A stretch of 64,000 nucleotides of DNA from an uncultured Clostridia bacterium (lineage in GTDB: Bacteria > CAYTYR01 > UBA6262): NCBI GenBank assembly GCA_964441745.1, contig CAYTYR010000010.1:11464-75463 (forward strand), read 5' to 3'. Made by a program: the position numbers and the translations under genes. The notes beneath the pieces were generated by a model. The model was given only the letters and a program-made list of their open reading frames with translations. It was not told the DNA's origin and searched no databases. Shown here piece by piece: positions 34,975 through 61,439 of this stretch. Each line of letters starts with the position of its first letter. Within the stretch, counting starts at the first letter, position 1.

Positions 34975-35640
34975 TTATGCGGTTAGTTGGTCTTTAAGCT
35001 GCCTGGTCAGGATAGTGAAGTTCTTTTCCTGGTAGTATTTCCGCTGGCCCGGCTCAAGCAAAGAACCGAGCTTGACTGCATAATCATTTCTTTGCAATTC
35101 TTCTATCCCCTTAACCAATGCCTTTAACTCTTCAGCCGTAGCGGTAACCGCCACCCCTTTTTTCAGCAAAAACTCCAGGTCATAGACATCCCTGATTTCT
35201 CTCCGGCTCAGGAAAGCCTCGATCTTGGCCCGCATCATTTCTTGCAGACTAACCACCCGCAAGAGGACTTGGACATTGGACTGAGAGCTAAAAGCAATAG
35301 CCGACTCCGTGTTTATTTTCTTAAGTTCTTTCCTGATCTCGATTTTCAGGGAACGCGCATAGGCCGGTGATTTGAGCTCAAAAAGCATGGTATGGAACTT
35401 ATTAGCCGCAGCAGTAATAGTATAGACCTGGGCTAGATAAGTCTTTAATTTCTGGAAATACTCCTTAGGCTCAATATCCTTAATTACCCAGAAATCAAGG
35501 TCCACCGAGTACCGCCCCAGCCCGTGGCAGAGACGCAGCATGGTCCCGCCGCCAAAAACAAGATTCCGGAGAAACCGGCCGCTATTCAGCCGGTCCAGGA
35601 CTTCCAATTCAAATTGTTCGTGCTTTTTCAGATCTTGCAT
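34975..35640 (-). CDS. AbiEii-family nucleotidyltransferase (type IV TA toxin)
   Basis: FGGGTMLRL.HGL.RYSVDLDF, KIEA...R.E.RDVYDL. Confidence 0.9.
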   Translation of the reverse strand: MQDLKKHEQFELEVLDRLNSGRFLRNLVFGGGTMLRLCHGLGRYSVDLDFWVIKDIEPKEYFQKLKTYLAQVYTITAAANKFHTMLFELKSPAYARSLKIEIRKELKKINTESAIAFSSQSNVQVLLRVVSLQEMMRAKIEAFLSRREIRDVYDLEFLLKKGVAVTATAEELKALVKGIEELQRNDYAVKLGSLLEPGQRKYYQEKNFTILTRQLKDQLTA

Positions 35641-36224
35641 ATATTCCTCACTATTTTCCTGGTTTTAGCCGGGTATGGCTTCAGCATTTTGGCTATTTTT
35701 GCTTGATCCAATTTGCTGAGATCCAGGGAATTAAGGTCAATTTTATATTTACCAAAAGAATAAAGATACAGAGCATCCAGAAAGGCCTTTTCCTTGGTCG
35801 CAATGAACAAACTGCCCTGCCTGACAAAATCACCATAATACTTTTGTTGCAGTTTGTAATACTTAAAAACCACTCCGTTAGTTTCATACATAATGGTTCG
35901 TTTCCAGGCCGCGCTCTCTATGAATCCCTGCTGCATTTGGCTGGTCACTTCATAATAAGACAAAGCGCTCATGAAGGAAATATACGAAGGCACTTGCAGG
36001 ATATTGGCGATTTGACGAAGCTCCTGGTCACTGATATTTTGCCATTTCTGGGCAGTAGTAAAATAGTTATTCCTTAACTTGACCAGCAGTCCCTTTTGGA
36101 CATACCGGCTGCAAAACACACTGGCCGAAGGCGCTTGAATCCCCAAAGTCTCAGCCACCTCCGCCACTGTAAAATAAATCTTTTGGCTCAATTCCTGTAT
36201 TTTTAGGCTATTTTTACTAAGCAT
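35628..36224 (-). CDS. AbiEi-family antitoxin
   Basis: N-terminal wHTH-like region, PSYISFMSALSYY, ATKEKAFLD. Overlaps the toxin gene; a TTGACA-17-TATTAT promoter lies just upstream. Confidence 0.85.
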   Translation of the reverse strand: MLSKNSLKIQELSQKIYFTVAEVAETLGIQAPSASVFCSRYVQKGLLVKLRNNYFTTAQKWQNISDQELRQIANILQVPSYISFMSALSYYEVTSQMQQGFIESAAWKRTIMYETNGVVFKYYKLQQKYYGDFVRQGSLFIATKEKAFLDALYLYSFGKYKIDLNSLDLSKLDQAKIAKMLKPYPAKTRKIVRNICKI

Positions 36225-38181: not shown

Positions 38182-38730
38182 TTACAGTTTAAACCCTGCT
38201 CCGATACTCTTCAACTCTGTCACCAATGCGTCTATCTCTTCCTTACTCGCTACTCCCTGCCCGATCTTGCTCTTAATATCTTCCAGCTTAAAGATGATCC
38301 TCTGCAGATGTTCACGGTCACCGACCATCTTTTCTTTGAGCTCATCTATCATACTGTTAAATCTTAAGGCAATTTCCTTAAATTCATCCCCTTTGCGCAA
38401 CTCTATTTTCTGGGTAAAATCACCTTCGGCTATTTTAATCATCCCATTTTCCAGATGCATCAATGGGCCGGCCACTTCATGGGAAATAAAGACACTGACT
38501 ACGATCACGGCTAATAATATCATCGGCAAACTGCGCGCCAGCATTTGGTTATATTTTGTCACCAGATCTACGACATCGCCGGACCTGGTCTTTTCCAGGA
38601 TAATGGAGCCAGCTTCATAATAGAGATTCCAGCCCACTACGGCTACCACGAATAAGATGGCAAAGACCAATAATGCGGCGTATTTGAATTGATAACTGGC
38701 CTTTACCAGGTAATTCCTTCTTCTTAGCAT
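38182..38730 (-). CDS. Two-TM HAMP protein without a recognisable output domain
   Basis: RRRNYLVK..YQ, two TM helices, SHEVAGPL...GDF...LRKGDEF, then a short coiled coil. Confidence 0.8.
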   Translation of the reverse strand: MLRRRNYLVKASYQFKYAALLVFAILFVVAVVGWNLYYEAGSIILEKTRSGDVVDLVTKYNQMLARSLPMILLAVIVVSVFISHEVAGPLMHLENGMIKIAEGDFTQKIELRKGDEFKEIALRFNSMIDELKEKMVGDREHLQRIIFKLEDIKSKIGQGVASKEEIDALVTELKSIGAGFKL

Positions 38731-38748
38731 AGGACACCTTTATGAGGT

Positions 38749-38931
38749 TTAATGCAGGACTTCGTTTCTTTCTTTGGCCATCACACCCTTATACAGATGC
38801 GGACAAAGTTCATATAATTTCTGGTAAGCCTCGTCTAATTCGACATACAAATTTTCTTGTTCCGACTGGCTTCTCTCCAACTCTTCTTCAAGTTCCTGGA
38901 TCTTATTTTCCAAAATCCTGGACGTTTTAAT
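38749..38931 (-). CDS. Possible small acidic coiled-coil protein (non-ATG start)
   Basis: Open frame IKTSRILENKIQELEEELERSQSEQENLYVELDEAYQKLYELCPHLYKGVMAKERNEVLH*. GGAGG lies 6 nt before an ATT; a TTG alternative is at 38913. Confidence 0.35.
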   Translation of the reverse strand: MKTSRILENKIQELEEELERSQSEQENLYVELDEAYQKLYELCPHLYKGVMAKERNEVLH

Positions 38932-39110
38932 TTTCGTCCTCCGATCTGCTATGAGTTTTTCACTCGCGGCAATTTAAAACCTTTGATAATGCTATATTAA
39001 TACGATACTATTAATTAGTCAAGAAAAAAAATAAACAACACTACATCTAGTTTAAACCCGAACTGTACCCGCAATATTTAGCGGTAAAAGTTTTAATAAT
39101 CAATTTTAAT

Positions 39111-39950
39111 TTATTTCATTGCTTTCAATCGTTTATCTGCTTCTTTGGCCCAGGGGCTCTTGGCATATTTTTCCACAATTAGCTGATACTTTTCCTTGGC
39201 TTTGGCCTGGTCCTTCAGTTTGACATCATATGTCGCGCCCATGGTCATCAGCCATACCGGCGACTCCGGGGACTTGGGATATTTAGTCAGCATGGTGTTC
39301 AATATTGACACCAGGTCAGCCCAATCACCCATACGCATATATACTTCAGCCAGCAGATTGCCGGCGCTATACTCTGACTGCGGTATAGCGCTGGCGCCGG
39401 CCATCACTTTCTTGTAATCCTGGATCGCCTGTTGATAAGCAATAGCGGCATTTGCTTTGTCTTTTTTACTCAAATAATAATTCAGCATAAACGCCGGTAT
39501 TTGCAGGCCGGCTTTAGTATCAGGATACTTCTCAAACGCTTCCCTGAATTTTTTGGAAGCTGTGCCCCAGTCATTCATTTGCTGATAGCAGGAAGCTATG
39601 GAGATGAGCGCCTTGGCCTGCAAGTCCTTGTTATCCTTATATAATGACTGGACCTGCTGGTAACTACTTATCGCTTCCTTGAATTTTCCCTGGACGATGA
39701 ACAAATTAGCTGTTAACAAATGCGCTTCTACCGCCTGCGGCGACTGCGGGTATTTGGTAATGATGTCATTAAAATCAGCCTTCGCCTTTTCAAACTTGAA
39801 CGGCGGAATATTCTTGGGGTCCTTAAAAATATCCTCGCTGTATTTAGCTGCCCAGTAAAAAGCTTTTTCCGCTTTATACTGCTGTGAACACCCGGTTAAT
39901 ACAAAGGATAAAAGTATTACTATTAATAAATATTTACAATTTTTCTTCAT
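39111..39950 (-). CDS. TPR-repeat lipoprotein (BamD/YbgF-like repeats)
   Basis: Lipobox LTGC and repeated ...YP.SP.A TPR caps. Confidence 0.8.
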   Translation of the reverse strand: MKKNCKYLLIVILLSFVLTGCSQQYKAEKAFYWAAKYSEDIFKDPKNIPPFKFEKAKADFNDIITKYPQSPQAVEAHLLTANLFIVQGKFKEAISSYQQVQSLYKDNKDLQAKALISIASCYQQMNDWGTASKKFREAFEKYPDTKAGLQIPAFMLNYYLSKKDKANAAIAYQQAIQDYKKVMAGASAIPQSEYSAGNLLAEVYMRMGDWADLVSILNTMLTKYPKSPESPVWLMTMGATYDVKLKDQAKAKEKYQLIVEKYAKSPWAKEADKRLKAMK

Positions 39951-39984
39951 ATTCCCTACAATCTCTCTTTAAAATCTGTGCGAA

Positions 39985-40024
39985 GTCCCCCCTGCCAGTT
40001 TCGCATCGCGAAACTAGGGGGGAT
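39985..40024. repeat. REP-like ~40 bp hairpin, copy 3 of 3
   Basis: gtcccccctgccagtttcgc...gcgaaactaggggggat. Confidence 0.8.
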
Positions 40025-40026
40025 AA

Positions 40027-40902
40027 TCATGTACTTTTAGTCTCTCTCACATTTAGATACAAAATAGTAGAAGATACAGCCACTATCGTATTCACTAAAA
40101 AAGCCAGTAATATTCCAAAGATGGTAATGACCAGGCTGATCTCGGGGAAATACATATCCATTAATCTGGGAATAAATACTTTCAAGACCACCGCCGCCAG
40201 ATAGAATACCACCGGGACCAGCACCAGTAGCACAGAAGTGACAAAATAACGGAATACGGTTTTAATGGATGCGGCGGCCGACCGCCAAAAACCTATATTT
40301 TCGATAATGATCAATACCGGGACATACATCAAAAGGGTTTCTATGCCGACGCTAAATAATATGTTAAATACCGCCAGCCCCACTCCCCATTTGATCTGGC
40401 CCATTTTCAGGAAATACCCTTTACCGGCTACTAATCTGTCTTTGATAAAGATCCCTGAAAAATGCTCCACCAGATAGATTATGATAAAAGTCACCAGGGT
40501 ATAGGCCAACAACGGCAAATACCGGTTAAACGCGATTTTAAAGTTCTTGCCAAAACGCAGGCTCATGCCCTTGGCTTCCTGGTTATACATAGAGATGGCA
40601 ATACCAGTCAACAGCGAGCCGAAGATCACCCCGGCAATGATCTGCCAGATGCGGAATATTTGCGGCAAAGCCAGTAAATGGCCGGGATAATGCAGTGCCG
40701 CTTCTCCATAAAAAGCCCTGATTGGCTGGGCCAGGACCAGGCTCACCGGCCACTGGGGTGAGTAAAAGAGCAGAGCTAATCCAGCCATTTCAATAAATGC
40801 CAAATACAGAAAAGGCTTAAATAAGCTTGGGTGCTTCCGCAGGTTCTGGAAAGTCGCTCTCACCACTGAACTGTAAATTTTCATGCTTTTTATTATCGGC
40901 AT
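40027..40902 (-). CDS. Polytopic membrane protein of unknown function
   Basis: About six hydrophobic segments. Confidence 0.75.
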   Translation of the reverse strand: MPIIKSMKIYSSVVRATFQNLRKHPSLFKPFLYLAFIEMAGLALLFYSPQWPVSLVLAQPIRAFYGEAALHYPGHLLALPQIFRIWQIIAGVIFGSLLTGIAISMYNQEAKGMSLRFGKNFKIAFNRYLPLLAYTLVTFIIIYLVEHFSGIFIKDRLVAGKGYFLKMGQIKWGVGLAVFNILFSVGIETLLMYVPVLIIIENIGFWRSAAASIKTVFRYFVTSVLLVLVPVVFYLAAVVLKVFIPRLMDMYFPEISLVITIFGILLAFLVNTIVAVSSTILYLNVRETKST

Positions 40903-41061: not shown

Positions 41062-41643
41062 CTATTTCTTCCCAAACCTTACCTTACCATAACCTACCAA
41101 ACCTACCAATCCACTGCCTAACAGCATCATACTGCCTGGTTCAGGTATCGGAGACATTCCATTATCAACAACGAGATTATCAATCCCGATGTCAAACATG
41201 CCATGGTCAGAGAATGTAAACGTTGTTGCGGGAGAAGCCAATAATATATTTCCGCTACTCCCCTTAGCCAACCATTGATTATAGTTCGCCGAAAAGATTT
41301 GGACACCATCTGCTTTAGCAATAAAGTCAGATCCAGTTGTAGGGTAAAAAACTCCCCAGTCAAATGACAGCGACTGGATTGGTGTTGCAAAAGCTATTGA
41401 AAAATATCCACTTGGTGCCAAGTTCATTATGTAATTATTACCGCCAAGGCCACCTACAACCGCGGTTGTTACGGTTATATCGGATCCGTATAAACCTTCC
41501 ATGTAAGTTTCAATTGCGTTTGACCCTTGCAACAAACTGAGAGCATCAAAATTAAATGTTACCGGGATTGCATATAGAGTCCCAACACAAAATAGTGAAA
41601 CTAATAATAGAAACATTACTGCTATCTTTTTCATCTTTTTCAT
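41062..41643 (-). CDS. PEP-CTERM sorting-domain protein 1
   Basis: Signal peptide and C-terminal PIPEPGSMMLLGSGLVGLVGYGKVRFGKK. Start moved to MKKMKK after a GAGGTG RBS. Confidence 0.92.
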   Translation of the reverse strand: MKKMKKIAVMFLLLVSLFCVGTLYAIPVTFNFDALSLLQGSNAIETYMEGLYGSDITVTTAVVGGLGGNNYIMNLAPSGYFSIAFATPIQSLSFDWGVFYPTTGSDFIAKADGVQIFSANYNQWLAKGSSGNILLASPATTFTFSDHGMFDIGIDNLVVDNGMSPIPEPGSMMLLGSGLVGLVGYGKVRFGKK

Positions 41644-41689
41644 CTTTTTCACCTCGCTTCCTTTCTCACTTTTGTTTGGCAAATAGTGA

Positions 41690-42340
41690 TTATTTTGATT
41701 TCCCAAATCTATACTTGCCATAACCGATCATTCCCAACAATCCACTGCCTAACAGCATCATACTGCCTGGTTCAGGTATCGGGCTAACATTCATAGTTCC
41801 TTTTAAAATAGTAGTATCATAATAGTCTGTCCCGGCAGGAGAAACTCCAAAATATAAAAAGTCATTTGCATTCATGTCAATATTGGCGACATTAAAAGCG
41901 GCTCCATTTAAATTGCTAATATTAGTGCTCCAAAGCAAGGATCCATTCTTCTTTACAAATACATTGATCAAGCCGCCGCCTAACGCCTGGAATTCCCCGG
42001 TGAGATTAAAAATTGAAGCTTCTGAGGCCTTATAACCCAGTACCGCATATTCTGTGCCATATATCGAACCCACATTACTGGCCGGATGCATAGCGATCCA
42101 GGGAGAAGTGCTCCTACTGATTAAAGGTATTGAATATGACTGCCCCGGGGTACTGAAAGCATAAGACCCGGTATCAGCCAGCTGCCGGTAGCTGTTAGTA
42201 TTAGGATTATACGCATAGGCCCAGAAATTATTCTGTCCCTGAGTATCAGGGAAGCCACTCCAGAGATCAACAGTTATAGCAAATGCGCTCTGCACCGCGC
42301 ATAGCGTAAGAAAAATCGCAACTAATACTATCTTTTTCAT
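41690..42340 (-). CDS. PEP-CTERM sorting-domain protein 2
   Basis: Signal peptide; PIPEPGSMMLLGSGLLGMIGYGKYRFGKSK. Confidence 0.93.
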   Translation of the reverse strand: MKKIVLVAIFLTLCAVQSAFAITVDLWSGFPDTQGQNNFWAYAYNPNTNSYRQLADTGSYAFSTPGQSYSIPLISRSTSPWIAMHPASNVGSIYGTEYAVLGYKASEASIFNLTGEFQALGGGLINVFVKKNGSLLWSTNISNLNGAAFNVANIDMNANDFLYFGVSPAGTDYYDTTILKGTMNVSPIPEPGSMMLLGSGLLGMIGYGKYRFGKSK

Positions 42341-42432
42341 CTTCTTCTCCTTCTCCTTCTAAATTCGATTACACAGATTTTCAAAAGAGATTACACCGAT
42401 TAGATCAACCGCGAACTGTTGACTGCGGACCG

Positions 42433-43140
42433 TTAACTTCTTTTCCTGCGTAATCCCACCAGCCCTACCAGTCCCGTTCCTAACAGCATCAGTGTCCCCG
42501 GTTCCGGTACAGGGCGACACACCCTATAACCATCTATATTTCCCGGTAAACCGCCACCAGCATCGCGTTTATCCCAGAAAGGTTCTCCGTTATCCTTACC
42601 ACCCCAAAAATCTATGTCCCAGGTAGCTGGACCTGCTGCTTGCTTGTTATAACGCGAGCCATCCAGTAAGAACCGCCAACAGCCATCCCAAATAGAATCA
42701 GACGCAAAAGAAAAACTAAATAAAGCGCTATCAGCCACGTTAACCGTAGTATCGCCAAAATAACTCATTAAGTAATCTGATAACGGGTCTGGCTGGTCAC
42801 TGATCATATGCAGTGGATGAGACGGATTCCCGGGTATCTCTGCTCCCGGCGCTGCCCTAAAGCAAGCGCCATTCGTGTCCACAAATTCAGAATCATGGGT
42901 CACATACCACTCATCCTGATTAGTTGATAAACCAGTGATCGTGTAAGACGGCAAGATAGGATAAGCTACCAGCGCCCAAATGCCCCAGGCATGTTCATTA
43001 TTGCTTAAAGAATCAGTTAAATAGTTCTTAATATCTCCAGCGGTAAAATCAACAGTATAACTATAAGCCTGAACTGAACCAGCATAGACCGAGACTAAAG
43101 CAACAAAAACTGTCATTGCTAAAAGTAATCTCTTAATCAT
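42433..43140 (-). CDS. PEP-CTERM sorting-domain protein 3
   Basis: Signal peptide; PVPEPGTLMLLGTGLVGLVGLRRKRS (canonical tail). Confidence 0.93.
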   Translation of the reverse strand: MIKRLLLAMTVFVALVSVYAGSVQAYSYTVDFTAGDIKNYLTDSLSNNEHAWGIWALVAYPILPSYTITGLSTNQDEWYVTHDSEFVDTNGACFRAAPGAEIPGNPSHPLHMISDQPDPLSDYLMSYFGDTTVNVADSALFSFSFASDSIWDGCWRFLLDGSRYNKQAAGPATWDIDFWGGKDNGEPFWDKRDAGGGLPGNIDGYRVCRPVPEPGTLMLLGTGLVGLVGLRRKRS

Positions 43141-43168
43141 TTGTAACTCCTGACCCGGCCTGATCTAA

Positions 43169-43984
43169 TTAAACTTTCTTGCCGAATCTCCTCTTGCCGT
43201 AACCGATCATTCCCAACAATCCACTGCCTAACAGCATCAGTGTCCCTGGTTCCGGTATCGGGTTTACATCAGCCGGCAGGTTCAATACATCATTGCCGCA
43301 CTCCATCGTCCAATGCACGTTTAGGTTTTGGGAAGAATTGTTGTTCAACCCAAGGGCGCTCAACGGAATCCCTGCTTCCAATACATAATGGGTATTCTGT
43401 TCTCCGCTATACACAAAATCCACCCAGTCAAAGGTAGATCCCGAGCTTATCCGCCAGGGATTAGAAGCAGCAAACCCGGAATAGTACACATTCTGCCAGT
43501 TGGCCAAAGTCAGGTTCTTATATAATTTAGCTCTTTTATTCACCGCGTCATATTCCCGCACATCTATACCATATTCATATATACCGTCATTATTCAAATC
43601 CAAGCCGATATCTCCGGTATTGAACCAGGGATTACCAGGAGCTGTGGCCCCACCTATCGGGAAACCAGTGATAACCGCCAGATATACATTAGTAGAAGTA
43701 TTATCAAAGTAAATGGCTTCAGTGTCAAACTGATTGCCGGAATAGGAATATCCCGGCCCTACATACTGCCAGGCAGTCTGCGGTCCGGCATTGTCTTCGG
43801 TGATCACATCAATATCCAAGCCACCGGAAGGCAAATTAGTATTCAGATACCCCAGAGCCGAGGCGCCGGCTATAGCCAGGTTCACATTCCAGTCACTAAC
43901 TGAGCCATCTACTACGTATGCCTGCGCTAAGCTAGACACTAGAAGAGTTAATCCAACCACTAAAGTGCATACTATTCTCTTCAT
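43169..43984 (-). CDS. PEP-CTERM sorting-domain protein 4
   Basis: Signal peptide; HWTMECGND motif; PIPEPGTLMLLGSGLLGMIGYGKRRFGKKV. Confidence 0.93.
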   Translation of the reverse strand: MKRIVCTLVVGLTLLVSSLAQAYVVDGSVSDWNVNLAIAGASALGYLNTNLPSGGLDIDVITEDNAGPQTAWQYVGPGYSYSGNQFDTEAIYFDNTSTNVYLAVITGFPIGGATAPGNPWFNTGDIGLDLNNDGIYEYGIDVREYDAVNKRAKLYKNLTLANWQNVYYSGFAASNPWRISSGSTFDWVDFVYSGEQNTHYVLEAGIPLSALGLNNNSSQNLNVHWTMECGNDVLNLPADVNPIPEPGTLMLLGSGLLGMIGYGKRRFGKKV

Positions 43985-44138
43985 TTTACTATCTCCTTTT
44001 TTTTAAATTTTAGTTGCCTTTATAACCACAAAAAACCGCAGAGAGTTTTGCCGCTCTCAGCAGCTCAAAATAGACAATGTTAAAATGATTGTTACAACAT
44101 TACTCAAGTGATTACTCATACTTTTTGAATTTCCTGCA

Positions 44139-44166
44139 CGGTATCAGGGGAATCCCCCTGATACCG
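44139..44166. terminator. Strong GC hairpin after PEP-CTERM protein 5
   Basis: cggtatcagggg-aatc-ccctgataccg. Confidence 0.5.
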
Positions 44167-44202
44167 CACAGACTGATCTAATTCATGCGCATTAACTAAA
44201 TC

Positions 44203-44955
44203 TTATGCTTTCTTTCCAAATCTTACTTTGCCATAACCGATCATCCCCAACAACCCTGTACCTAACAGCATCATACTGCCTGGTTCAGGCACTGGAGATA
44301 CCTTTGTTTCAAAGGTATAATCATCTTTAGGCATTGGTACATCCTGTCCGATCATTAAACCAATATTTGTGACATGAGCCAAGTTGAGACCTGTAATCGA
44401 AGAAAGATTTACCAGCTCTCCATTATAGGTACCGCCCCAAACATAAGCATTGGCAAAGTCCAGCATTATCGTGCTTGAACTGGCGACAGGAACCGTTGTC
44501 CACGTATTCTGGACAAAATAGTTGCTTTCACCGGAATCTGTATAACCTACATTGAAGTAAAGATTATACTTCCAAGCATTCTCATTGACATTTTCAACAT
44601 TTAAAGCATAAGAATCAAATCCTACTAAACTGCCCAATCCTAAGCTTACGTTTGTAGGTGCAGTTCCAGCGGCTCCACCAAATGGTTGACCCCAGAAATT
44701 TGCGCCTATCTGTATTGATCCCCATACAGGGCCAGCATCGTTAGTCCTAATATTGCCAGTGTATTTTGCACCATTTGATAATACTTGAACTGGATTCAAA
44801 TAAGTACCAGCACTGCTAGGATTTTCATAGACCTCATATAGCGCAGCTAACTGCGTTGGGTTCAAAGTAAACGTCAATGCCATAGCAGCTTCTGAAAACG
44901 CCATTAATCCTATCACTAAAACAAGTGATATAATTACTTTTTTCATTATTTTCAC
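44203..44955 (-). CDS. PEP-CTERM sorting-domain protein 5
   Basis: Signal peptide; PVPEPGSMMLLGTGLLGMIGYGKVRFGKKA. Confidence 0.93.
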   Translation of the reverse strand: MKIMKKVIISLVLVIGLMAFSEAAMALTFTLNPTQLAALYEVYENPSSAGTYLNPVQVLSNGAKYTGNIRTNDAGPVWGSIQIGANFWGQPFGGAAGTAPTNVSLGLGSLVGFDSYALNVENVNENAWKYNLYFNVGYTDSGESNYFVQNTWTTVPVASSSTIMLDFANAYVWGGTYNGELVNLSSITGLNLAHVTNIGLMIGQDVPMPKDDYTFETKVSPVPEPGSMMLLGTGLLGMIGYGKVRFGKKA

Positions 44956-45172: not shown

Positions 45173-46081
45173 TTACCGTGCGCCCTTCCCGGTCAGCATC
45201 ACCACAAAGGTACCAAAGATGATCCTCAGGTCCATCAGCAGGCACATCTTCCTGATATATAATAGGTCATAGTGGACTTTCTTCTTCACATCACTCAGGG
45301 TAGAATCATAGTGCTGGCGTACCTGCGCCAATCCGGTAATGCCTGGCTTTACTCTCAGCCGCTTATTATATTTTTTGATTGATTTATTCAAGGTAGGAAT
45401 GATCTGGGCCCTTTCCGGCCTTGGCCCGATCATGCTCATATCTCCCATAAGCACATTGACCAACTGTGGCAATTCATCCAAATGGGTCTTTCTTAAGAAC
45501 CTGCCCACAGAAGTGATCCGGGGGTCATTTTCCTGGCACCAGACAGCGCCGGTTTCTTGCTCTGCATCTATTTTCATAGTCCTGAACTTATACATGGTAA
45601 AAGAGCGCCCAAAGCTTGGCCCAGCCCGGCGGTCAGTGCCCCGGCTCGCTCTGCGTCTCTCGCTATAGCGCTTGTTTTCTCCTACTCGTTCCTGATTGAA
45701 GAATACTGGCCCTTTGGAAGTTAATTTTATAGCAATTGCTATGACTATCCACAAAGGAGCTGTCACGATCATAGCTAATCCAGCCATCACTATATCCATA
45801 CCTCTTTTGATCTGCCGGAAGAATCTCCTGAAACTGGTCGCTAGCAGTCCAAATATGCCACTGCCAAACAATACCATCGTACCAGGTTCTGGAAGGTGGG
45901 CTACTTCAGCCGATAGGTTCTGGACATAAATTTCGCGCTCCAAATCCAAATTCTGTTTGTTGGTATTACCTGCGGTATTAATACTCAAGTCACTCGGTAA
46001 TCCATCTATTACATAAGCCTGCGCCAAGACGGATAATAGAAGAGTCAAGCTGAACACTAAGTAAAATACTATTCTCTTCAT
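45173..46081 (-). CDS. Fusion of signal peptide, PEP-CTERM module and bacterial sugar transferase (priming phosphoglycosyltransferase) domain
   Basis: MKRIVF...AQA signal, LPEPGTMVLFGSGIFGLL+RR, then KRGMDI, YKFRTM, DPRIT.VGRFLRK.HLDELPQL.NVL.GDMS.IGPRPE, VKPGITGLAQV. Confidence 0.92.
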   Translation of the reverse strand: MKRIVFYLVFSLTLLLSVLAQAYVIDGLPSDLSINTAGNTNKQNLDLEREIYVQNLSAEVAHLPEPGTMVLFGSGIFGLLATSFRRFFRQIKRGMDIVMAGLAMIVTAPLWIVIAIAIKLTSKGPVFFNQERVGENKRYSERRRASRGTDRRAGPSFGRSFTMYKFRTMKIDAEQETGAVWCQENDPRITSVGRFLRKTHLDELPQLVNVLMGDMSMIGPRPERAQIIPTLNKSIKKYNKRLRVKPGITGLAQVRQHYDSTLSDVKKKVHYDLLYIRKMCLLMDLRIIFGTFVVMLTGKGAR

Positions 46082-46162
46082 ATCCCCATCTCCCTTTCTT
46101 TTAGAAACGATCACACAGATTTTAAAAAAGATTACACCGATTAAAGCTAACATAAAAATACA

Positions 46163-46211
46163 TGAGATTAACTAATTGTTCAGTTAATCTCACGGCATCG
46201 TGTCAACTAAC
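46163..46211 (-). promoter_or_regulatory. Operator-like inverted repeat plus a motif shared with the HTH-HD-GYP upstream region
   Basis: TGAGATTAAC-10-GTTAATCTCA; GTTAATCTCACG-N5-GTGTCAACTAAC contains a minus-strand TTGACA. Confidence 0.6.
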
Positions 46212-46352: not shown

Positions 46353-46532
46353 CTATTTCATCTTCTCAGTCAACCAAAGCTTTACCCGAATCCCTTCCTG
46401 TATAGCGATATTAATATCGGCATACTTAAGGGATTTGGCTTTACGATATGCGTGCAATATTTCTACTTCATCTTTGGGAATCCCATTAGACCTGCGTTCC
46501 TGCCTTCTGCGTTCATTGGCAGAGTTCTCCAT
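46353..46532 (-). CDS. Small DUF2292 (YezD)-like protein, 59 aa
   Basis: GGAGG RBS; MENSANERRRQERRS...EILHAYRKAKSLKYADINIAIQEG. Confidence 0.6.
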   Translation of the reverse strand: MENSANERRRQERRSNGIPKDEVEILHAYRKAKSLKYADINIAIQEGIRVKLWLTEKMK

Positions 46533-46643: not shown

Positions 46644-47438
46644 CTAACATTGTATCATTTCTTTCTTGGCGACATTTTCCAAAACAGCGACCAAGTTTGA
46701 CGCAAACTGGATGTTTTCAAATTTCTTTATCTCGTCGATACTGACCTGTATATTTTCTTTACCTTTGGCTTTATTCTTGTACATGATGACATCAAAAGCT
46801 TCAGCCAGGCCGACTATTTGCGCGTCCAGCGGTATCGCGCCCCCTTTCAACCCTTCCGGGTATCCCATACCGTTGTACCATTCATGGTGATGCTTGATGA
46901 TCGGACTGAAAATTTGCAGGTACTCCACATCCTTAACCATTTCTGAGCCAAATTGCGGGTGCTTTTTTAATTCCTTGTATTCATCACGGGTTAGCTTGTC
47001 AGTCTTGCTCAGTATATCATTGTCCACATTCAATTTACCAATATCATGCAGGAGTCCAGCCATATTTAACAATTCGATTTTGTCATCTTTAAACCCCATC
47101 GCCTGGCCGATCAACCGGCATATCTTGGCCACTCTGGCGCTATGTCCCAGAAACATGGGTATTTCTTTGCCTTCAATGGCGCGGACCATGGCCCTGACGA
47201 TCAAGGCGCTCACATCCATTAATTCTTTCAAGTCATTGCCTTTAAGCTCATCAGCCGCTGTTTCCAGTTTTCTATTTACTTCTGATTCCAGAATACGGTG
47301 ATGCCCGCCTGGCGTTTTAAACGACTTGATCTTACCCTGGTAAATATAATTCTTGACCGTCTGAACGCTGACCTTTAGTATGTTGGCAACTTCCCTGATG
47401 GTTAGAACTCTATGTTCGCGAGGAATGTCTTCGATCAT
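46644..47438 (-). CDS. Excisionase-like HTH (HTH_17/MerR-type) fused to an HD-GYP domain
   Basis: LTIREVANILKVS..TV.NY..QGKI...KTPGGHHRI; GHSARV, HDIGK, HHHEWYNGMGYP. Confidence 0.9.
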   Translation of the reverse strand: MIEDIPREHRVLTIREVANILKVSVQTVKNYIYQGKIKSFKTPGGHHRILESEVNRKLETAADELKGNDLKELMDVSALIVRAMVRAIEGKEIPMFLGHSARVAKICRLIGQAMGFKDDKIELLNMAGLLHDIGKLNVDNDILSKTDKLTRDEYKELKKHPQFGSEMVKDVEYLQIFSPIIKHHHEWYNGMGYPEGLKGGAIPLDAQIVGLAEAFDVIMYKNKAKGKENIQVSIDEIKKFENIQFASNLVAVLENVAKKEMIQC

Positions 47439-47737: not shown

Positions 47738-48532
47738 CTACCGTACCATATTCAAAATCATTTCCCGGTCAAATAGCTTTAATTCATTTTTGTCTTCCAG
47801 GAATCGTTCCACATCTTTTCTGGCAGATGACAGATCGATCAAGGCTAGATGTTCCACCATAAATTGCTTAAAATTGCCAGATGTGACCTGCCAATCTTTC
47901 TTCTCTGTTTGGGCAATGGCATTATTCAACAAAAGGTAATTTGGCTCAATCCCTTTGCCCAAATACCAGATCAAATCATAAAAATCACGCCCCTTAGTAA
48001 ATCTCCTGAAAAAGCAGGCATGTAATTTGGCCGCGTACAGGGAGGGCAGATCAAAACTATTCACGGCAAAGACGAACGACCTGGTTACCGGAATTACTAT
48101 TGTTTTCCAGCCAGCAGGCGGATTCGTGTCAATCTCCAGCTTTACTGCCAGCTTTTGCTCTTGTACCTGGCTCAAACCTAATTCTTTCAGCAACCCCGGG
48201 AATTTGATCATACTGCTATGCACTATCTTATCTTGGTCAGGCTCTGCCTCCACTTTAAATCCATAATGCTTCAGCTCAAACAGCAGATCTTTCAGCAGCT
48301 TTTCGAAAGAATAATCCTTCTTCTCTACTAAGCTAAAATCCAAATCCTCGCTATATCGCCGCAGATCATAAAGAACTCTCAAGGCCGTACCGCCTACAAA
48401 CGCCATATTGCCAAAAGCGCCTCGGTCAAACATGATCTTAAGCATCAGTGCCTGCAGTGTTTCCCTGGTCTTATTTACTTTGTCTTCCAGGCTCATCCCC
48501 AGACTAAAACCTTGTTTGATCGATTCAATCAT
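47738..48532 (-). CDS. AbiEii-family nucleotidyltransferase toxin
   Basis: FVGGTALR..Y.L.RYSEDLDF, KLEID.NPP, KLHA...R...KGRD.YDL.WY. Confidence 0.92.
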   Translation of the reverse strand: MIESIKQGFSLGMSLEDKVNKTRETLQALMLKIMFDRGAFGNMAFVGGTALRVLYDLRRYSEDLDFSLVEKKDYSFEKLLKDLLFELKHYGFKVEAEPDQDKIVHSSMIKFPGLLKELGLSQVQEQKLAVKLEIDTNPPAGWKTIVIPVTRSFVFAVNSFDLPSLYAAKLHACFFRRFTKGRDFYDLIWYLGKGIEPNYLLLNNAIAQTEKKDWQVTSGNFKQFMVEHLALIDLSSARKDVERFLEDKNELKLFDREMILNMVR

Positions 48533-48535
48533 TAT

Positions 48536-49174
48536 TTATCTCCACACTTCTTTTACAACTCTCCTCAGCTTGTGACTCTCAAACAACTCGGCATAGCGCA
48601 ATAAATTTCGCTGATCCAGAGTTTCCAGGTTCTGTAAACGGAATGATTCGCTAGCCCTCAGCTTAAATTCATCTTTGAATAAATGAAGGTTCAAATACAG
48701 AAAATCAACCACTGCTTTTTCCGCAACAGCCAGATAATAGGCTAAGCCGGAATCATCTTTCATTTCCCTGAATCCAGTAAAACAGCGCTCTGGCACATGC
48801 TGGTAAACAAACCTGCCGAGAAAATTTTGAAATACGGCTGTCTTTTTGGAAGAAATGCAGGTAATATCCGCGACTCTTTCAGGAATTAGCCCATAAAAAG
48901 CCAAAGCATACTCCATGCTCACATAAGAGGGACTATATAATTCTTTAGAAATATATAAACGGGAAGGATTGATCTTGCGGTCTTCTTCATTGAGAATATA
49001 TAAGCCCTGCCTCAGCCTTAAGAGCTTGCCGGTCTTGACCCAGCGGCTAACTTGATTTTTAAATGACTGTGACTCATCAGCCACTAGTTTTAAGTATTGA
49101 CTGCTGATCAGGGGCACGCCTTTTACTTTTTTCCGTAACTCTTCATATCTCATAGTATTCCTGTTAATAATCAT
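48536..49174 (-). CDS. AbiEi-family antitoxin
   Basis: RW.K.GKLLRLRQGLY, PSYVSMEYAL.FYGLIPE, AEKAVVD.LY. Confidence 0.88.
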   Translation of the reverse strand: MIINRNTMRYEELRKKVKGVPLISSQYLKLVADESQSFKNQVSRWVKTGKLLRLRQGLYILNEEDRKINPSRLYISKELYSPSYVSMEYALAFYGLIPERVADITCISSKKTAVFQNFLGRFVYQHVPERCFTGFREMKDDSGLAYYLAVAEKAVVDFLYLNLHLFKDEFKLRASESFRLQNLETLDQRNLLRYAELFESHKLRRVVKEVWR

Positions 49175-52732: not shown

Positions 52733-55700
52733 CTATTTTACAATTGCCATCTTCCCCGTTTTCTCATGCCCTTCCTCATCCCAGGCATAATAGATATAGA
52801 CGCCGCTGGCCGCATCCTGGCCATCCTCATTCTTGGCGTCCCAAAAAGCTACCCCGCTTTGCTCTTCCAGCTCCCTGACCAGCTCACCTGCTAAATTAAA
52901 TATTTTTATCTTGGCTGTTGGTGTCAAATGCGAGATCGTGATCAATCCGCCGCTGGCTTTCTTCCAGGGATTCGGGAAGCTCCGCACCCGTTCCAGGTTC
53001 ATCACCGGCCCGCTCAATGTTTCCGCACAATTGGATAGCTCGGATACATTGCCCACTGAATCTATAGCTTTTAAGGCAAAATAATAATGCTGCTGGACTG
53101 CCAGGTTATTAATAGTCATCAGTTCTTTTAAACCAGCTTCTTTCGGCGTAGGCGCGTAATCCAGGGCATTTGCCAAGTTCCAAGTACTCGCATCAATATA
53201 ACCAAGTGAATACTTGACAATATAGCTCGCCGCTGTGCCAGTTGTGCCATTGTTGCCCGGCGCCGTCCAGTGCAGCATCACTTGCCCGTCGATATTGCCT
53301 GGCTCGGCCTGCAGGTCCTCTATTTTACCCGGAGCAATTGCATCACTATTAGCGGCAAAAGTTTCAGTCACATTGGATATGACCGAAGCATTATTATCGC
53401 TATCATAGCTTTTGATCGCAAAATAATATTGCTGTCCAGGAGCAAGATTGCTCACAACAAAGCTCTGCGGTTCACCTGGATTGACCGGGGAAGGTGAGGT
53501 TGGATATTTCCCGGCCCCGCTCCATTCTACTTCGCTCTCGCTGAATATCCGCCACAGGTTCACTTCATAAATATGATCTGTAGAATACCGTATCTCATAC
53601 TCTTTGACCTTGCTGGCATCAGCAGAAGCCGGAGCGGTCCAGGATAAAAAAACAGAGCCATTAGCACTGCCTACCTGTCCGGATAGATCATTGATTTTGC
53701 CGGGAGGAATGCCGCCCTTAGCCTTGGCAGCAACAATATTGGATAAAGCAGAAACATTGCTCCCGGTGTCTGAAGACTTAATGCCGAAATAGTATCTTTG
53801 GTTAGCAGTTAGATTAGCGATAGTCAAACTTTGATATGTCCCTGACACTGCCGTACTTGGTGCATTTAATACCCTAACCGCCATCTGCCATCCGCCATCT
53901 GTGATCGTTACTGTTGAATATCTGATATCATACTCTTTCGCCTTGCCGATACTACCGTCATTACCAGACGCAGTCCACCCTATCACTACCTCGCCGATAT
54001 TGGTGCCGGCAGTAGCAGTCAAGTCAGCGATCGCTCCCGGCGCTATCGAGTCTGCGCCTATAGTTACGGTGGCCACATTGGATAAGGCAGATTCATTATC
54101 TGCCCCGTCCGTACTTTTAATAGCGATATAATAGGTCTGCCCAATATCCAGGTCATATATTTTTGCTGATTCTGTAAATCCGGCAGAATTAGGTGCTAGG
54201 GCAACATCCAACAAAGTGCCTTGTGTAAAGTTAGAAGCATTCAAGGCAAAAGAAGCATACCGAATTTCATAATCTAATGCCGTCCCGGCAGAACCATCTC
54301 CGCCGGGAGCTGTCCAGGTGATCGTGGCCTCGCCACCGGCTGTATTGGTGCCTGCCAGCGTAGTGACCTGCCCTGGCGGGGTAGTATCCCCGATAGGATT
54401 ATAGGCCACTGCCTGCGGGACATTGAAGACTCCTGAACCAAAATTACTATTATCAATGGCCTGCACCGCGAAATAGTATTGCTGTCCAGGAGTAAGCCCA
54501 GTCACTACAAATCTTTCCGCGCTTCCTGCCACTTGAGGCTCTGGCTCACTGGAGCATTGCGTAGCACTGCTCCAGGTATAGGCATTGATCAAGGCCTGAG
54601 AATAGCGGATATCATACATCAAAGCTGTGCCAGCACTGCCATCATCACCAGTAGCGGTCCAATTCAAGACCACCTCTCCGCTATGCGCGCCAGAATCTGC
54701 TGAAACATCAGTAATACCAGCCGGAGCAGTAATATCCACTTCCCCGGATTTATATGCCTGGCAGGAAGATATATTGGATAATGCAGATGTATTGAAGCTA
54801 TCATCACTGGTTTTCAGGGCAAAATAATAAGTGGTCCCAGGAGTGAGGCCACTTAAAGTGACTACTTCAGAAGAACCAGCAATTTTAGGCACTGGCTCAC
54901 TTAAATACTGGGTTGCATCTGTCCAATTAGCATCACTTATACTATTTAAAGAATATCGCAAATCATATGAAGAAGCAATACCATTTTCATTATCATCTCC
55001 TGGCGCTGTCCAGCTCACCACTATCCGCCCATCAATGGTCCCAGGCACAGCCGTCAGGTCAGTCACTTCAGCCGGTGCCGTCCCATCACCTGTCTTGGCG
55101 CTCACAGTGTTAGAATTGCCTGAAGTATGTGGTATTGAGTTAGTCGTTTGCATAGCAAAATAATAGGTGGTTTCACTTTGCAGCCCAGTAATCACCATAC
55201 TTTGAGTCGTCCCAGCTACTTGTGGAATTGGTTCGCCACTTACCTGATTTGCTGCATCCCAAGTTGACTCATCTATTGAGACTAATGAATATCTTATATC
55301 ATAAGAAGTAGCAGTCCCGGTATTCTCATCAGATCCTGGCGCAGTCCAAGCCAAGGTCACGCTATTAGTACCAGTATTACTCACTGATAAGTCAGTAATC
55401 ACCGCCGGAGTTGGCCCATAGATACTACTTGGGATGGTATTCCCTAGATATTCCCAGATATATCTGGTTAAAGTAGTCCCCTCAGCGCAGAACCCGCGAT
55501 CCCCAGATACCCCGCCTTCATCATATGCCTTCATCTTACTCCGGATCAAATCCTCATTCGGAAATGGCCACATACTCACTCCGGTATCAGTATTATACCC
55601 AGCTTCACCCCAAAGCGTACCCGGAGTACCGATTAAAGTCGTAATATTTGCTCCAATATCCGCTCCGCTTTCACCCTGCCCTTTTAGATTTGAACCAGTT

Positions 55701-56947
55701 TCAATACGAGTGATATACTTCAACGCCCCTGTCAGATTGGTTGAGGCATTCCAAAGAGGATTAACAGAAGTATTATGTGTACCAGTGACCCCGGTCGCAT
55801 TAGAATTGCCATTTAGGCAATTGTAGTCTTGTCCTTCTACATCATACATTAAAATAGAAGTGCCTGTCTGGTTGTAAATAATATTGTCTTTAACAACACT
55901 ATTGTTCTCGCCTGAATCAGGATCACTACTATTAAAAAATCTCAACCCATTACTAATATTGTTCCCAAAAGTACAATTAAGGACTGAGGTATTTGGCCCA
56001 CGAATAGTATAAAAACCATTCCCATCTACAGTTTTACCATCCCAAACTACACAGTCTTGGAATACAATCTCGTGAGAATCTTTAGCGCTGTTTATACCAC
56101 CAACGGCACAGTTCAGGCCAATACATCTAGTAAAATTTACCCGATTAGCAGACATATCAGTAGAAGGCACAGCAAAACATCCTGCATATTCGCTGGCATT
56201 GATATAATAGCTCGATTGGTCAGAATCGATAGCTATGCAATTTTGCACTTCCCCATCGGAAACAGAATACATAGAATAATTAGCTATTACATCAGGACTA
56301 CCAGGAAAGCTATGCCGATCATGCCTGGCAACACAGTTGCGGAGAATTATATGGTTACTCTGATATGGTTCAAATTTATATCTTCCTGTCCCATAAGAAT
56401 AACAACCTTCTAATAACACATAATCATCATGCCGGATATAGAAGTTGTTAGTGTTTCCGTCGCCACAATCGTATGCTCCACAACGTAGAAACTTGACATA
56501 AGAAGCGTGAATAAGATTTACATTGGGGCCAGGGGTATTACACCAGAGCAATCCCTCAAATTGCCAATATACATTATCAGTAGGAGAACTTACATCTACA
56601 TAATCAAACATTGCATTTTTATCTTGCCCATCAAAAATCGCTTCCCCATCGTGTTCCGCTTTCACAATAGTATAATTACTGGAGGTGCCAAAAGGTGGGA
56701 ACTGATTTCCTGTTCCACCGAAATAGATGGAATTTACATATCCAGTGTATGTACCATCTTTACAGATAAGAGTATCCCCTCCTTTTATACTGGTCATGCC
56801 TTTACTCAGTGTTGCCCAAGGAAGTACGGAAGAACCAGTACCTGAAGAATCATCTCCAGTAGGAGAAATGTAATAGGTAGAGGCAAATAGGCTCGTTGTC
56901 GCAAATAGTAAACTTACGATTGCGAATATAAAACAAAACCTTTTCAT
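52733..56947 (-). CDS. Secreted 1404-aa protein: right-handed beta-helix + 7 FN3-like repeats + FlgD/T9SS-CTD-like C-terminal domain
   Basis: Signal peptide; YYISPTGDD; seven repeats of the form APG.I.DL...W.APG.DG..G.A..Y.IRYS...YYFA; C-terminal FPNPW...IKIFNLAGELVR...WDAKNEDG...ASGVYIY...GKMAIVK. Confidence 0.85.
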   Translation of the reverse strand: MKRFCFIFAIVSLLFATTSLFASTYYISPTGDDSSGTGSSVLPWATLSKGMTSIKGGDTLICKDGTYTGYVNSIYFGGTGNQFPPFGTSSNYTIVKAEHDGEAIFDGQDKNAMFDYVDVSSPTDNVYWQFEGLLWCNTPGPNVNLIHASYVKFLRCGAYDCGDGNTNNFYIRHDDYVLLEGCYSYGTGRYKFEPYQSNHIILRNCVARHDRHSFPGSPDVIANYSMYSVSDGEVQNCIAIDSDQSSYYINASEYAGCFAVPSTDMSANRVNFTRCIGLNCAVGGINSAKDSHEIVFQDCVVWDGKTVDGNGFYTIRGPNTSVLNCTFGNNISNGLRFFNSSDPDSGENNSVVKDNIIYNQTGTSILMYDVEGQDYNCLNGNSNATGVTGTHNTSVNPLWNASTNLTGALKYITRIETGSNLKGQGESGADIGANITTLIGTPGTLWGEAGYNTDTGVSMWPFPNEDLIRSKMKAYDEGGVSGDRGFCAEGTTLTRYIWEYLGNTIPSSIYGPTPAVITDLSVSNTGTNSVTLAWTAPGSDENTGTATSYDIRYSLVSIDESTWDAANQVSGEPIPQVAGTTQSMVITGLQSETTYYFAMQTTNSIPHTSGNSNTVSAKTGDGTAPAEVTDLTAVPGTIDGRIVVSWTAPGDDNENGIASSYDLRYSLNSISDANWTDATQYLSEPVPKIAGSSEVVTLSGLTPGTTYYFALKTSDDSFNTSALSNISSCQAYKSGEVDITAPAGITDVSADSGAHSGEVVLNWTATGDDGSAGTALMYDIRYSQALINAYTWSSATQCSSEPEPQVAGSAERFVVTGLTPGQQYYFAVQAIDNSNFGSGVFNVPQAVAYNPIGDTTPPGQVTTLAGTNTAGGEATITWTAPGGDGSAGTALDYEIRYASFALNASNFTQGTLLDVALAPNSAGFTESAKIYDLDIGQTYYIAIKSTDGADNESALSNVATVTIGADSIAPGAIADLTATAGTNIGEVVIGWTASGNDGSIGKAKEYDIRYSTVTITDGGWQMAVRVLNAPSTAVSGTYQSLTIANLTANQRYYFGIKSSDTGSNVSALSNIVAAKAKGGIPPGKINDLSGQVGSANGSVFLSWTAPASADASKVKEYEIRYSTDHIYEVNLWRIFSESEVEWSGAGKYPTSPSPVNPGEPQSFVVSNLAPGQQYYFAIKSYDSDNNASVISNVTETFAANSDAIAPGKIEDLQAEPGNIDGQVMLHWTAPGNNGTTGTAASYIVKYSLGYIDASTWNLANALDYAPTPKEAGLKELMTINNLAVQQHYYFALKAIDSVGNVSELSNCAETLSGPVMNLERVRSFPNPWKKASGGLITISHLTPTAKIKIFNLAGELVRELEEQSGVAFWDAKNEDGQDAASGVYIYYAWDEEGHEKTGKMAIVK

Positions 56948-61429: not shown

Positions 61430-61439
61430 TGCTAACTCC

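Follow-up and report, generated by a model that had tools for sequence, protein, structure and literature searches.

A PEP-CTERM-like sorting module joined to a priming phosphoglycosyl transferase, and its possible connection to exosortases

The window analyzed here, a 64,000-nucleotide stretch from an uncultured Clostridia bacterium (contig CAYTYR010000010.1, positions 11,464 to 75,463), contains a gene in which a module resembling the PEP-CTERM protein-sorting signal is fused in frame to a complete monotopic phosphoglycosyl transferase (PGT). We found that the Pro-Glu-Pro (PEP) motif of the module is conserved in a large family of such fusions, and that most relatives with a signal peptide, among the loci listed, are encoded directly behind an exosortase and EpsI. 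Based on these features, we favor, on balance, the view that the module is recognized by an exosortase and that it couples the priming of exopolysaccharide (EPS) synthesis to PEP-CTERM sorting. The first-pass annotation of this DNA had described one intact open reading frame (ORF) with a signal peptide, about 40 exported residues, LPEP with a transmembrane (TM) helix and RR, and a complete PGT domain. This was confirmed, with ~41 exported residues and a Gly-rich helix, and the parts of the gene (aa, amino acids) are as follows.

45173..46081, minus strand: whole ORF, 302 aa plus stop; a predicted signal peptide and the exported remnant, then the PEP-TM-basic module and the monotopic PGT.
46090..46094, minus strand: GGGAG, resembling a ribosome-binding site, 8 nt before the ATG at 46081.
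46016..46081, minus strand: predicted signal peptide, aa 1-22; MKR, hydrophobic core, AQA-Y.
45893..46015, minus strand: exported remnant, aa 23-63, left from a cargo domain of ~240 aa after an in-frame deletion.
45809..45892, minus strand: PEP-CTERM-like module, aa 64-91, made up of the PEP motif, the Gly-rich TM helix GTMVLFGSGIFGLLATSF and the basic cluster RRFFRQI.
45884..45892, minus strand: Pro-Glu-Pro motif, aa 64-66, identified by conservation among homologs.
45176..45808, minus strand: monotopic PGT domain (Bac_transf), aa 92-302, supported by Pfam, NCBIfam, alignment, AlphaFold2 (AF2) and Foldseek.
45719..45808, minus strand: putative reentrant membrane helix, aa 92-121, with K92, R93, D96 and P109, from the fold match to PglC.
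45605..45673, minus strand: Arg-rich insertion KRYSERRRASRGTDRRAGPSFGRS, aa 137-159, clade-specific and of low predicted local distance difference test score (pLDDT).
45473..45478, minus strand: Asp-Glu dyad D202-E203, in HLDELPQ, invariant in the alignment.

The reading frame was intact in the window and in an independent assembly. The protein starts with MKRIVFY, its N-terminus reads MKRIVFYLVFSLTLLLSVLAQA / YVIDG, and the stop codon occupies 45173-45175. An alternative in-frame ATG upstream, at 46153, would give a protein of 326 aa; we favored the start at 46081 because homologs open with MKR(I/V)V and because the GGGAG lies 8 nt upstream from it. The leader, predicted by eye with its cleavage site placed by the AxA rule, is homologous to that of a stand-alone PEP-CTERM protein. 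There was no stop codon or frameshift between the PEP-TM segment and KRGMDI, and the same unbroken frame was present over the full 909 nt, at 82.6% nucleotide identity, in the assembly 'Elusimicrobia bacterium UBA6262' (locus L005, the same as L023). Translation from the internal Met, the other concern raised in the first-pass annotation, found no support among homologs, which do not begin there. Two database entries of 234 aa (P0007 and P0017) are called from 'MVLFGSG' and cluster with full forms of 482 and 304 aa.

The PEP-TM-basic module was the most constrained part of the gene. Comparing the window with UBA6262 by the NG86 method, we obtained ratios of nonsynonymous to synonymous substitution rates (dN/dS) of 0.03 for the PEP-TM-basic module (28 codons), 0.09 for the PGT domain, 0.14 for the signal peptide, and 0.83 for the exported remnant (39 codons). 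The ~40 exported residues thus appear to behave as a near-neutral spacer; they are also predicted to be disordered, with pLDDT below 50 at aa 29-44 in the AF2 model. It is highly improbable that we are dealing with a false join of two genes, a protein that truly starts at M69 or M95, or a decaying pseudogene. The two calls from 'MVLFGSG' and the origin of the exported segment as a deletion relic would be expected if this were so, but the frame is unbroken in independent assemblies and in hundreds of relatives, the signal peptide and the PEP-TM segment are under purifying constraint (dN/dS of 0.14 and 0.03), a ribosome-binding-site-like sequence precedes the ATG at 46081, the short calls group with full-length forms, and a start at M95 would delete the invariant K92 and R93.

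The module resembles a PEP-CTERM signal in sequence and differs from it in position. Residues 63-91 read L-PEP-GTMVLFGSGIFGLLATSF-RRFFRQI, and the PGT then begins at K92-R93-G-M-D96, such that ~211 residues follow a module that is normally C-terminal. The Pfam model for PEP-CTERM (PF07589) scored 21.5 bits at aa 64-86, above its cut-off of 20.7, and the NCBIfam model TIGR02595 fell below its cut-off (14.8 versus 16 bits). Taken alone the match is marginal; taken with its conservation at fixed spacing among homologs, it is far beyond chance.

The PEP motif was conserved in a search that did not select for it. Using the whole 302-aa protein as the query, with no condition on PEP, we found 120 relatives of 44-90% identity, the few named ones being assigned to Omnitrophota/Omnitrophica or simply 'bacterium'. 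Among relatives with a complete N-terminus, P64 was present in 117 of 117, E65 in 116 of 117, and P66 in 111 of 117, so that the loss of the motif in homologs, which the first-pass annotation had allowed for, was not what we observed. The helix glycines G75 (117/119) and G78 (107/119) were kept as well, an R/K pair follows, and the distance from PEP to KRxxD is fixed at 25 residues. The dozen residues upstream from PEP were variable. The sole relative without a signal peptide (P0018) has IPGLGN where others have VPEPGT.

The fusion is found in at least 112 species-level genomes and ~200 protein clusters. A codon-degenerate DNA pattern (PEP, 25 aa, KRxxD, 25 aa, SxG, 5 aa, QxRxG) was run against one genome for each GTDB species; the pattern carries ~44 bits, had 0 matches in the shuffled window, and was validated on the window and five loci. 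The scan returned at least 119 loci, at least 112 of which encode a hydrophobic helix after PEP and are hence true cases. Seven others (L014, L018, L037, L050, L086, L097 and L105) were rejected as chance PEPs in non-hydrophobic linkers, and these PGT loci served as a small negative control. The labels, among the loci listed, were mainly Candidatus Omnitrophota and 'uncultured Planctomycetales/Planctomycetota', with Brocadiia, Auribacterota, PVC and Elusimicrobia besides, and a few names that probably reflect mis-binning. A profile search of a representative library was unfit for sizing the family, as its 1614 matches at E <= 1e-10 include generic PGT helices; the PEP position was covered by ~50 of the best 150 of these. 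Some genomes carry two PEP-PGT paralogs with unlike exported leaders (L023 and L121 in UBA6262; L064 and L108 in JBAZMA010000001.1), and one Omnitrophota metagenome-assembled genome has two copies on a single contig, in adjacent 8-kb chunks. There was no curated model specific for PEP-PGT proteins in NCBIfam and none in Pfam, and a fusion of PEP-CTERM to a PGT was not described in the literature searched, which was covered in part. As far as we checked, PEP-PGT proteins are an apparently undescribed variant at the junction of two known systems.

PEP is also maintained in proteins that have nothing in front of it. About 20 of the ORFs listed from the scan open with 'M-PEP...' and leave no room for a signal peptide, even if GTG and TTG starts are allowed. 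We retested this class, free of the bias toward PEP, with one such protein as the query. Of the 118 homologs found, 84 start with MPEP (52-97% identity, in several sub-families) and 1 with MPDP, 17 have PEP behind an N-terminal extension, and ~6 are true small PGTs with no helix. Since 84 of 118 start with MPEP, the motif is maintained where nothing can be released. Methionine aminopeptidase is expected to remove Met when it precedes Pro, and mature proteins of this class would then start with PEP itself.

The remainder of the protein has the fold and the conserved residues of a monotopic PGT. Bac_transf (PF02397) matched with 220.1 bits against a cut-off of 27, in two stretches separated by the Arg-rich insertion, at which 27 of the 120 homologs have residues. 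Two longer models were matched only in part and below their cut-offs: TIGR03025 (EPS_sugtrans; 289 versus 295.55 bits) within the C-terminal domain of its 445 positions, and TIGR03013 (244.7 versus 393.35 bits) within positions 299-443. K92, R93, D96, P109, D202-E203 and P220-R221-P222 were invariant in 70 aligned relatives, and we take D202-E203 to be the catalytic dyad, in keeping with published work on PglC. By analogy with PglC, aa 92-121 would form a reentrant helix. The AF2 model had a mean pLDDT of 80, and Foldseek matched it in the PDB only to PglC (8g1n and 8e37; E ~1e-12, TM-score on the target 0.74-0.77) and WbaP (8t53; E = 2e-9). Based on these results, we predict that the gene encodes an active priming PGT, and we propose this as part of the best explanation of the fusion.

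The genes of most relatives listed lie directly downstream from an exosortase and EpsI. In two distant members (P0065 and P0045) the gene order is exosortase (PF09721, ~270 aa), EpsI (PF11984), PEP-PGT, and PEP-CTERM proteins. We built hidden Markov models (HMMs) from the exosortases and EpsIs of these two loci and ran them against all ORFs of all loci. Among the loci listed that are of the signal-peptide class and have at least 1.5 kb of upstream sequence, an exosortase and EpsI were immediately upstream and on the same strand in 61 of 73, with the end of EpsI typically 200-400 bp before the PGT start. The same arrangement was present in 7 of the 15 MPEP-class loci and in none of the 7 chance-match PGT loci. 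The adjacent exosortases fit the generic model TIGR02602 only, and no named Xrt subtype, and they retain Cys181, Arg226 and His247 in 77-78 of 78. We also counted 164 stand-alone PEP-CTERM tails within the PEP-PGT loci listed.

These arrangements bear on an alternative explanation, in which the helix was gained once through fusion with a PEP-CTERM gene and only anchors or orients a small PGT, with PEP serving helix capping or membrane insertion and no exosortase taking part. Small monotopic PGTs tolerate added N-terminal helices and large PGTs have four (PMC11626204), the window clade lacks an adjacent exosortase (see below), and the module differs from the tails of cargo proteins. However, among relatives of ~45% identity the three residues of PEP vary no more than the catalytic residues do, where a generic anchor needs only hydrophobicity. 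The exosortase-EpsI-PGT order was found in 61 of 73 loci versus none of the control loci, P0018 lost PEP together with its signal peptide, and the small PGTs with no helix among close relatives indicate that the anchor is unneeded for PGT function as such. We therefore think it unlikely that the module is an anchor and nothing else.

The window gene is a shortened version of a longer fusion in which a complete cargo domain precedes the PEP motif. Its closest relatives are 'long forms' of 471-497 aa, with 481-485 aa in the closest ones of the window clade (P0003 at 86% identity, P0385, P0004, P0008, P0010-16, and so on to P0077 at 47%), whose exported part is a full-length homolog, PEP region included, of one of the stand-alone cargo genes of the window:

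41062..44955, minus strand: five stand-alone PEP-CTERM cargo genes, an array directly downstream from the PGT gene, with members at 44203-44955, 43169-43984, 42433-43140, 41690-42340 and 41062-41721, all on the minus strand.
43169..43984, minus strand: stand-alone PEP-CTERM protein of 271 aa ('gene 4' of the first-pass annotation), 79% identical to the exported domain of the long form at locus L001.

At the nucleotide level gene 4 and nt 1-770 of the long form in L001 are 80% identical, and a separate ortholog of gene 4 is absent from L001. Nucleotides 1-109 and 190-909 of the window gene align to nt 1-109 and 736-1455 of this 484-aa long form, so the window gene is a long form minus ~180 codons, in frame; similarity to the cargo gene's 3' end persists at nt 140-237. 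The syntenic UBA6262 locus has this collapsed gene too, with 83% identity, so the deletion was inherited and is no assembly error. A different collapse, independent of that in the window, is found in P0386 (304 aa). The cargo domain was thus lost twice independently (window/P0002 and P0386), in each case with the signal peptide and PEP-TM kept. At L126 a long form is present and stand-alone cargo genes are absent, leaving the fused copy as the only local cargo, and the second UBA6262 paralog (L121) has an unrelated short leader.

The first-pass annotation had noted that the N-terminus of the fusion resembles that of gene 4, and had proposed duplication of gene 4, internal collapse, and fusion. 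Both the resemblance (20 of 27 residues are identical, and blastn gives 74% over 97 nt with E = 1e-13) and the internal collapse are real. The proposal of a local fusion from a duplicated gene 4 did not hold, because the fusion is ancient and family-wide and because the PGTs of the closest relatives themselves carry the gene 4 domain as their exported part.

The module of the PGTs shares a core with cargo tails and has flanks of its own. Compared with the 164 stand-alone tails, it has in common PEP, S/T at +4, L at +7 and G at +9, +11 and +14. The modules of the window protein and the long forms are cargo-like on the N-terminal side of PEP (NPV-PEPGT, HL-PEPGT) and PGT-like on the C-terminal side (F at +19, RR at +21/22, F at +24), a pattern that fits recombination within the homologous segment coding for PEP-CTERM; K-S-R/H-A-PEP is the version in the common short forms. 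Just past the signal peptide, short-form leaders have subgroup-specific motifs such as 'AWATLSFVKPxD' and 'LLEPxxRDKLTFAVTYFDNPKV', and a variable hydrophilic linker joins the leader motif to K-S-R-A-PEP. Internal PEP-CTERM modules also occur in another context. P0121 (2500 aa), P0164 (1375 aa), P0185 and P0190 are single ORFs of 4-10 head-to-tail PEP-CTERM units in which '...VPEPSTALLLGLGLVGLVARRRR' of one unit abuts the signal-peptide-like segment of the next with no stop and no Met, and they look like PEP-CTERM 'polyproteins'.

A second alternative, which takes up the suggestion of the first-pass annotation, is that an exosortase cuts at PEP, as in ordinary PEP-CTERM proteins. The exported part would be set free or joined to something else, and the cut would turn the PGT on or off or would signal active sorting. 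The intact cargo domain of the long forms (~240 aa, 79% identical to a stand-alone PEP-CTERM protein), its position as sole local cargo at L126, the cargo-like N-terminal side of PEP in the window and long forms, the apparently intact catalytic residues of the adjacent exosortases, and the chained 'polyproteins', which suggest that internal modules can be processing sites, are all in line with such maturation, and it is for the long forms that it is most plausible. However, MPEP forms keep PEP with nothing to release, the part that would be released from the window protein evolves nearly neutrally, the K-S-R-A-PEP context of most short forms is unlike that of cargo, and a change in the activity of a TM-anchored PGT upon a cut is without support. 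We regard cleavage-dependent maturation or gating as possible, yet clearly less probable than recognition that couples EPS priming to sorting.

Based on this comparison, we believe that stable docking on the exosortase, through mimicry of a substrate or product, is more likely than is the release of a functional cargo. The MPEP class (84 of 118) and the near-neutral remnant (dN/dS of 0.83) are the reasons for which we favor docking or recognition over meaningful cargo release. In the proposed mechanism, the signal peptide would drive export of the N-terminus, PEP would then be positioned at the outer face of the inner membrane, and the Gly-rich helix would span the membrane, leaving the basic cluster and the PGT in the cytoplasm. 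This topology, with the peptide outside and the PGT inside, had been suggested in the first-pass annotation and is self-consistent. The module would bring the PGT to the exosortase/EpsI machine, and the first lipid-linked EPS sugar would be made beside the enzyme that processes PEP-CTERM proteins. The leader may still be removed at PEP or close to it, and this would give a 'PEP-TM-PGT' resembling the forms that other bacteria encode directly.

Several points weigh against exosortase recognition. Binding by an exosortase, and any cleavage by it, are predictions from sequence, and the cleavage of the signal peptide is predicted by eye. Neither an exosortase nor EpsI was found in the 64-kb window, where ~50 ORFs were searched with Pfam and NCBIfam and the custom HMMs were applied at E <= 10, and neither was found at E <= 10 in the loci of its closest relatives that are syntenic with it (L001, L005, L121 and L126). 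For the window itself this absence is the chief weakness, and the partner of its clade is assumed, from the PEP-CTERM array, to be encoded elsewhere in the genome. The PGT-type module is unlike cargo tails in having K-S-R/H-A before PEP, in place of V/P-V/I, and a helix that is ~2 residues longer, differences that could point to another handler or to a role that is structural only. The scan required PEP, and its matches alone therefore cannot show that PEP is conserved; only the whole-protein search and the MPEP-query search are unbiased in this respect. The segments compared for dN/dS are short (28 and 39 codons). Finally, AF2 gives aa 66-121 as one continuous helix, which is impossible in a membrane, and therefore the model lends no support to the topology.

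If the module docks, the PGT might have a more direct part in sorting. It could be a resident partner of the exosortase, with PEP-TM held in the sorting-signal site as a mimic of the product or leaving group, and its polyprenyl-PP-sugar or its own N-terminus could be the acceptor for PEP-CTERM proteins. We consider this idea doubtful. If it were true, the long forms (cargo-PEP-TM-PGT) would be the genetically encoded equivalent of a ligation product, and the MPEP, signal peptide-spacer-PEP and cargo-PEP architectures would converge on one mature species.

Several genes near the fusion had features of their own. We weighed a polytopic protein of 291 aa (40027-40902) as a possible divergent exosortase and rejected it; it has no Cys and no match to Pfam, NCBIfam or the custom HMMs. 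It belongs to a group of genes after the PEP-CTERM array (38182-40902, minus strand) that also includes a YbgF/BamD-like TPR protein and a small HAMP protein. The group is syntenic in L001, L005 and L126, and the membrane protein is 79-83% identical in L001 and L005. Upstream from the PGT, a 59-aa ORF with no Pfam match (46353-46532, minus strand) lies between a regulator gene and the PGT; at 95% identity among the window, L005, L126 and L127, it is far more conserved than the PGT (77-86%). It is followed by a terminator-like hairpin (46161-46194, minus strand; 15-bp stem) ~80 nt before the PGT start. Cyclic di-GMP (c-di-GMP) is a recurring theme. The gene at 46644-47438 (minus strand), upstream from the PGT, encodes an HTH and HD (HD_5/HDOD-type) protein that, in the window clade, partially matches a c-di-GMP phosphodiesterase model. 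In the Planctomycetota MPEP cassettes examined (L007, L027, L031, L048 and L095) a homologous small ORF lies between EpsI and the PGT, and the L007 copy (2908-3291, minus strand) matches the PilZ domain. AbiEi/AbiEii-like toxin-antitoxin pairs at 47738-49174 and 34975-36224 (both minus strand) flank the locus; one separates the PGT region from the peptidase and glycosyltransferase genes upstream, and AbiEii Pfam matches were also found in syntenic loci. Farther upstream, a 1404-aa protein (52733-56947, minus strand) has multiple fibronectin-III domains, a beta-helix region and a weak C-terminal match to CHU_C (type IX secretion), and adjoins GT2, GT4, UDP-GlcNAc 2-epimerase and deacetylase-like genes at 56944-63687.

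The fusion shares features with several known systems and differs from each. Like substrates of the PEP-CTERM/exosortase system (EpsH, XrtA; PF07589, TIGR02595), the window protein has PEP, a Gly-rich TM helix and a basic cluster, and a signal peptide is predicted at its N-terminus; its gene is beside a PEP-CTERM array, and in most relatives beside exosortase, EpsI and EPS genes. PEP-CTERM domains were described as C-terminal 'virtually without exception', with fewer than 10 residues after the domain in 87% of the founder proteins, and atypical placements 'may represent non-functional examples' (Haft et al. 2006; PMC1569441). In the PEP-PGT proteins the module is instead internal or N-terminal, followed by a putatively cytoplasmic enzyme of ~210 aa, the flanks of the PGT-type module are distinct (K-S-R-A-PEP, longer helix), and the adjacent exosortases match only generic TIGR02602. 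With PglC (Campylobacter; 8g1n, 8e37) and WbaP (8t53) the protein shares Bac_transf, the KR..D helix with its Pro break, the Asp-Glu dyad, PRP and, for PglC, a TM-score of 0.74-0.77. A 2024 survey of monotopic PGTs distinguished small, large (four-helix bundle and nucleotide-binding domain) and bifunctional classes (PMC11626204), and the window protein falls outside all three, adding a bitopic helix with a putatively periplasmic PEP, a predicted signal peptide, an exported segment and the clade-specific Arg-rich insertion. The nearest precedent for a priming PGT tied genetically to an exosortase is TIGR03013 (EpsB_2, the XrtA/PEP-CTERM glycosyltransferase of Proteobacteria), which is similar in its catalytic domain. 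Its members are large PGTs linked to the exosortase by neighborhood only, with no sorting tag, and the window protein matches the C-terminal ~190 residues of the 443-position model. Sortases, transpeptidases that sort LPXTG proteins to a polyprenyl-linked glycan acceptor (lipid II), and type IX secretion (T9SS), in which C-terminal-domain cargo is joined to anionic lipopolysaccharide via a linking sugar (PMC7468200), are likenesses in concept with no homology. A PGT tethered to an exosortase would fit such a glycan-acceptor scheme.

The PEP-PGT family constitutes a conserved 'Rosetta-stone' fusion, in which the enzyme for the first lipid-linked sugar bears a sorting tag and, in the loci listed, is mostly encoded right after exosortase and EpsI. 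Among organisms that form biofilms and flocs, exosortases and PEP-CTERM proteins are widespread, and the system travels with EPS genes. The fusion offers a testable physical link between the two, namely docking of the PGT on the exosortase, with the lipid-linked glycan as a candidate acceptor for exosortase substrates, and the three-gene cassette is small enough for reconstitution in E. coli. The finding should be of clear interest to specialists on exosortases and on PGTs. For the former, strong selection can act on an internal or N-terminal PEP-CTERM module, contrary to the early view of misplaced copies as non-functional; for the latter, PEP-PGT proteins would be a fourth architecture in the monotopic PGT superfamily.

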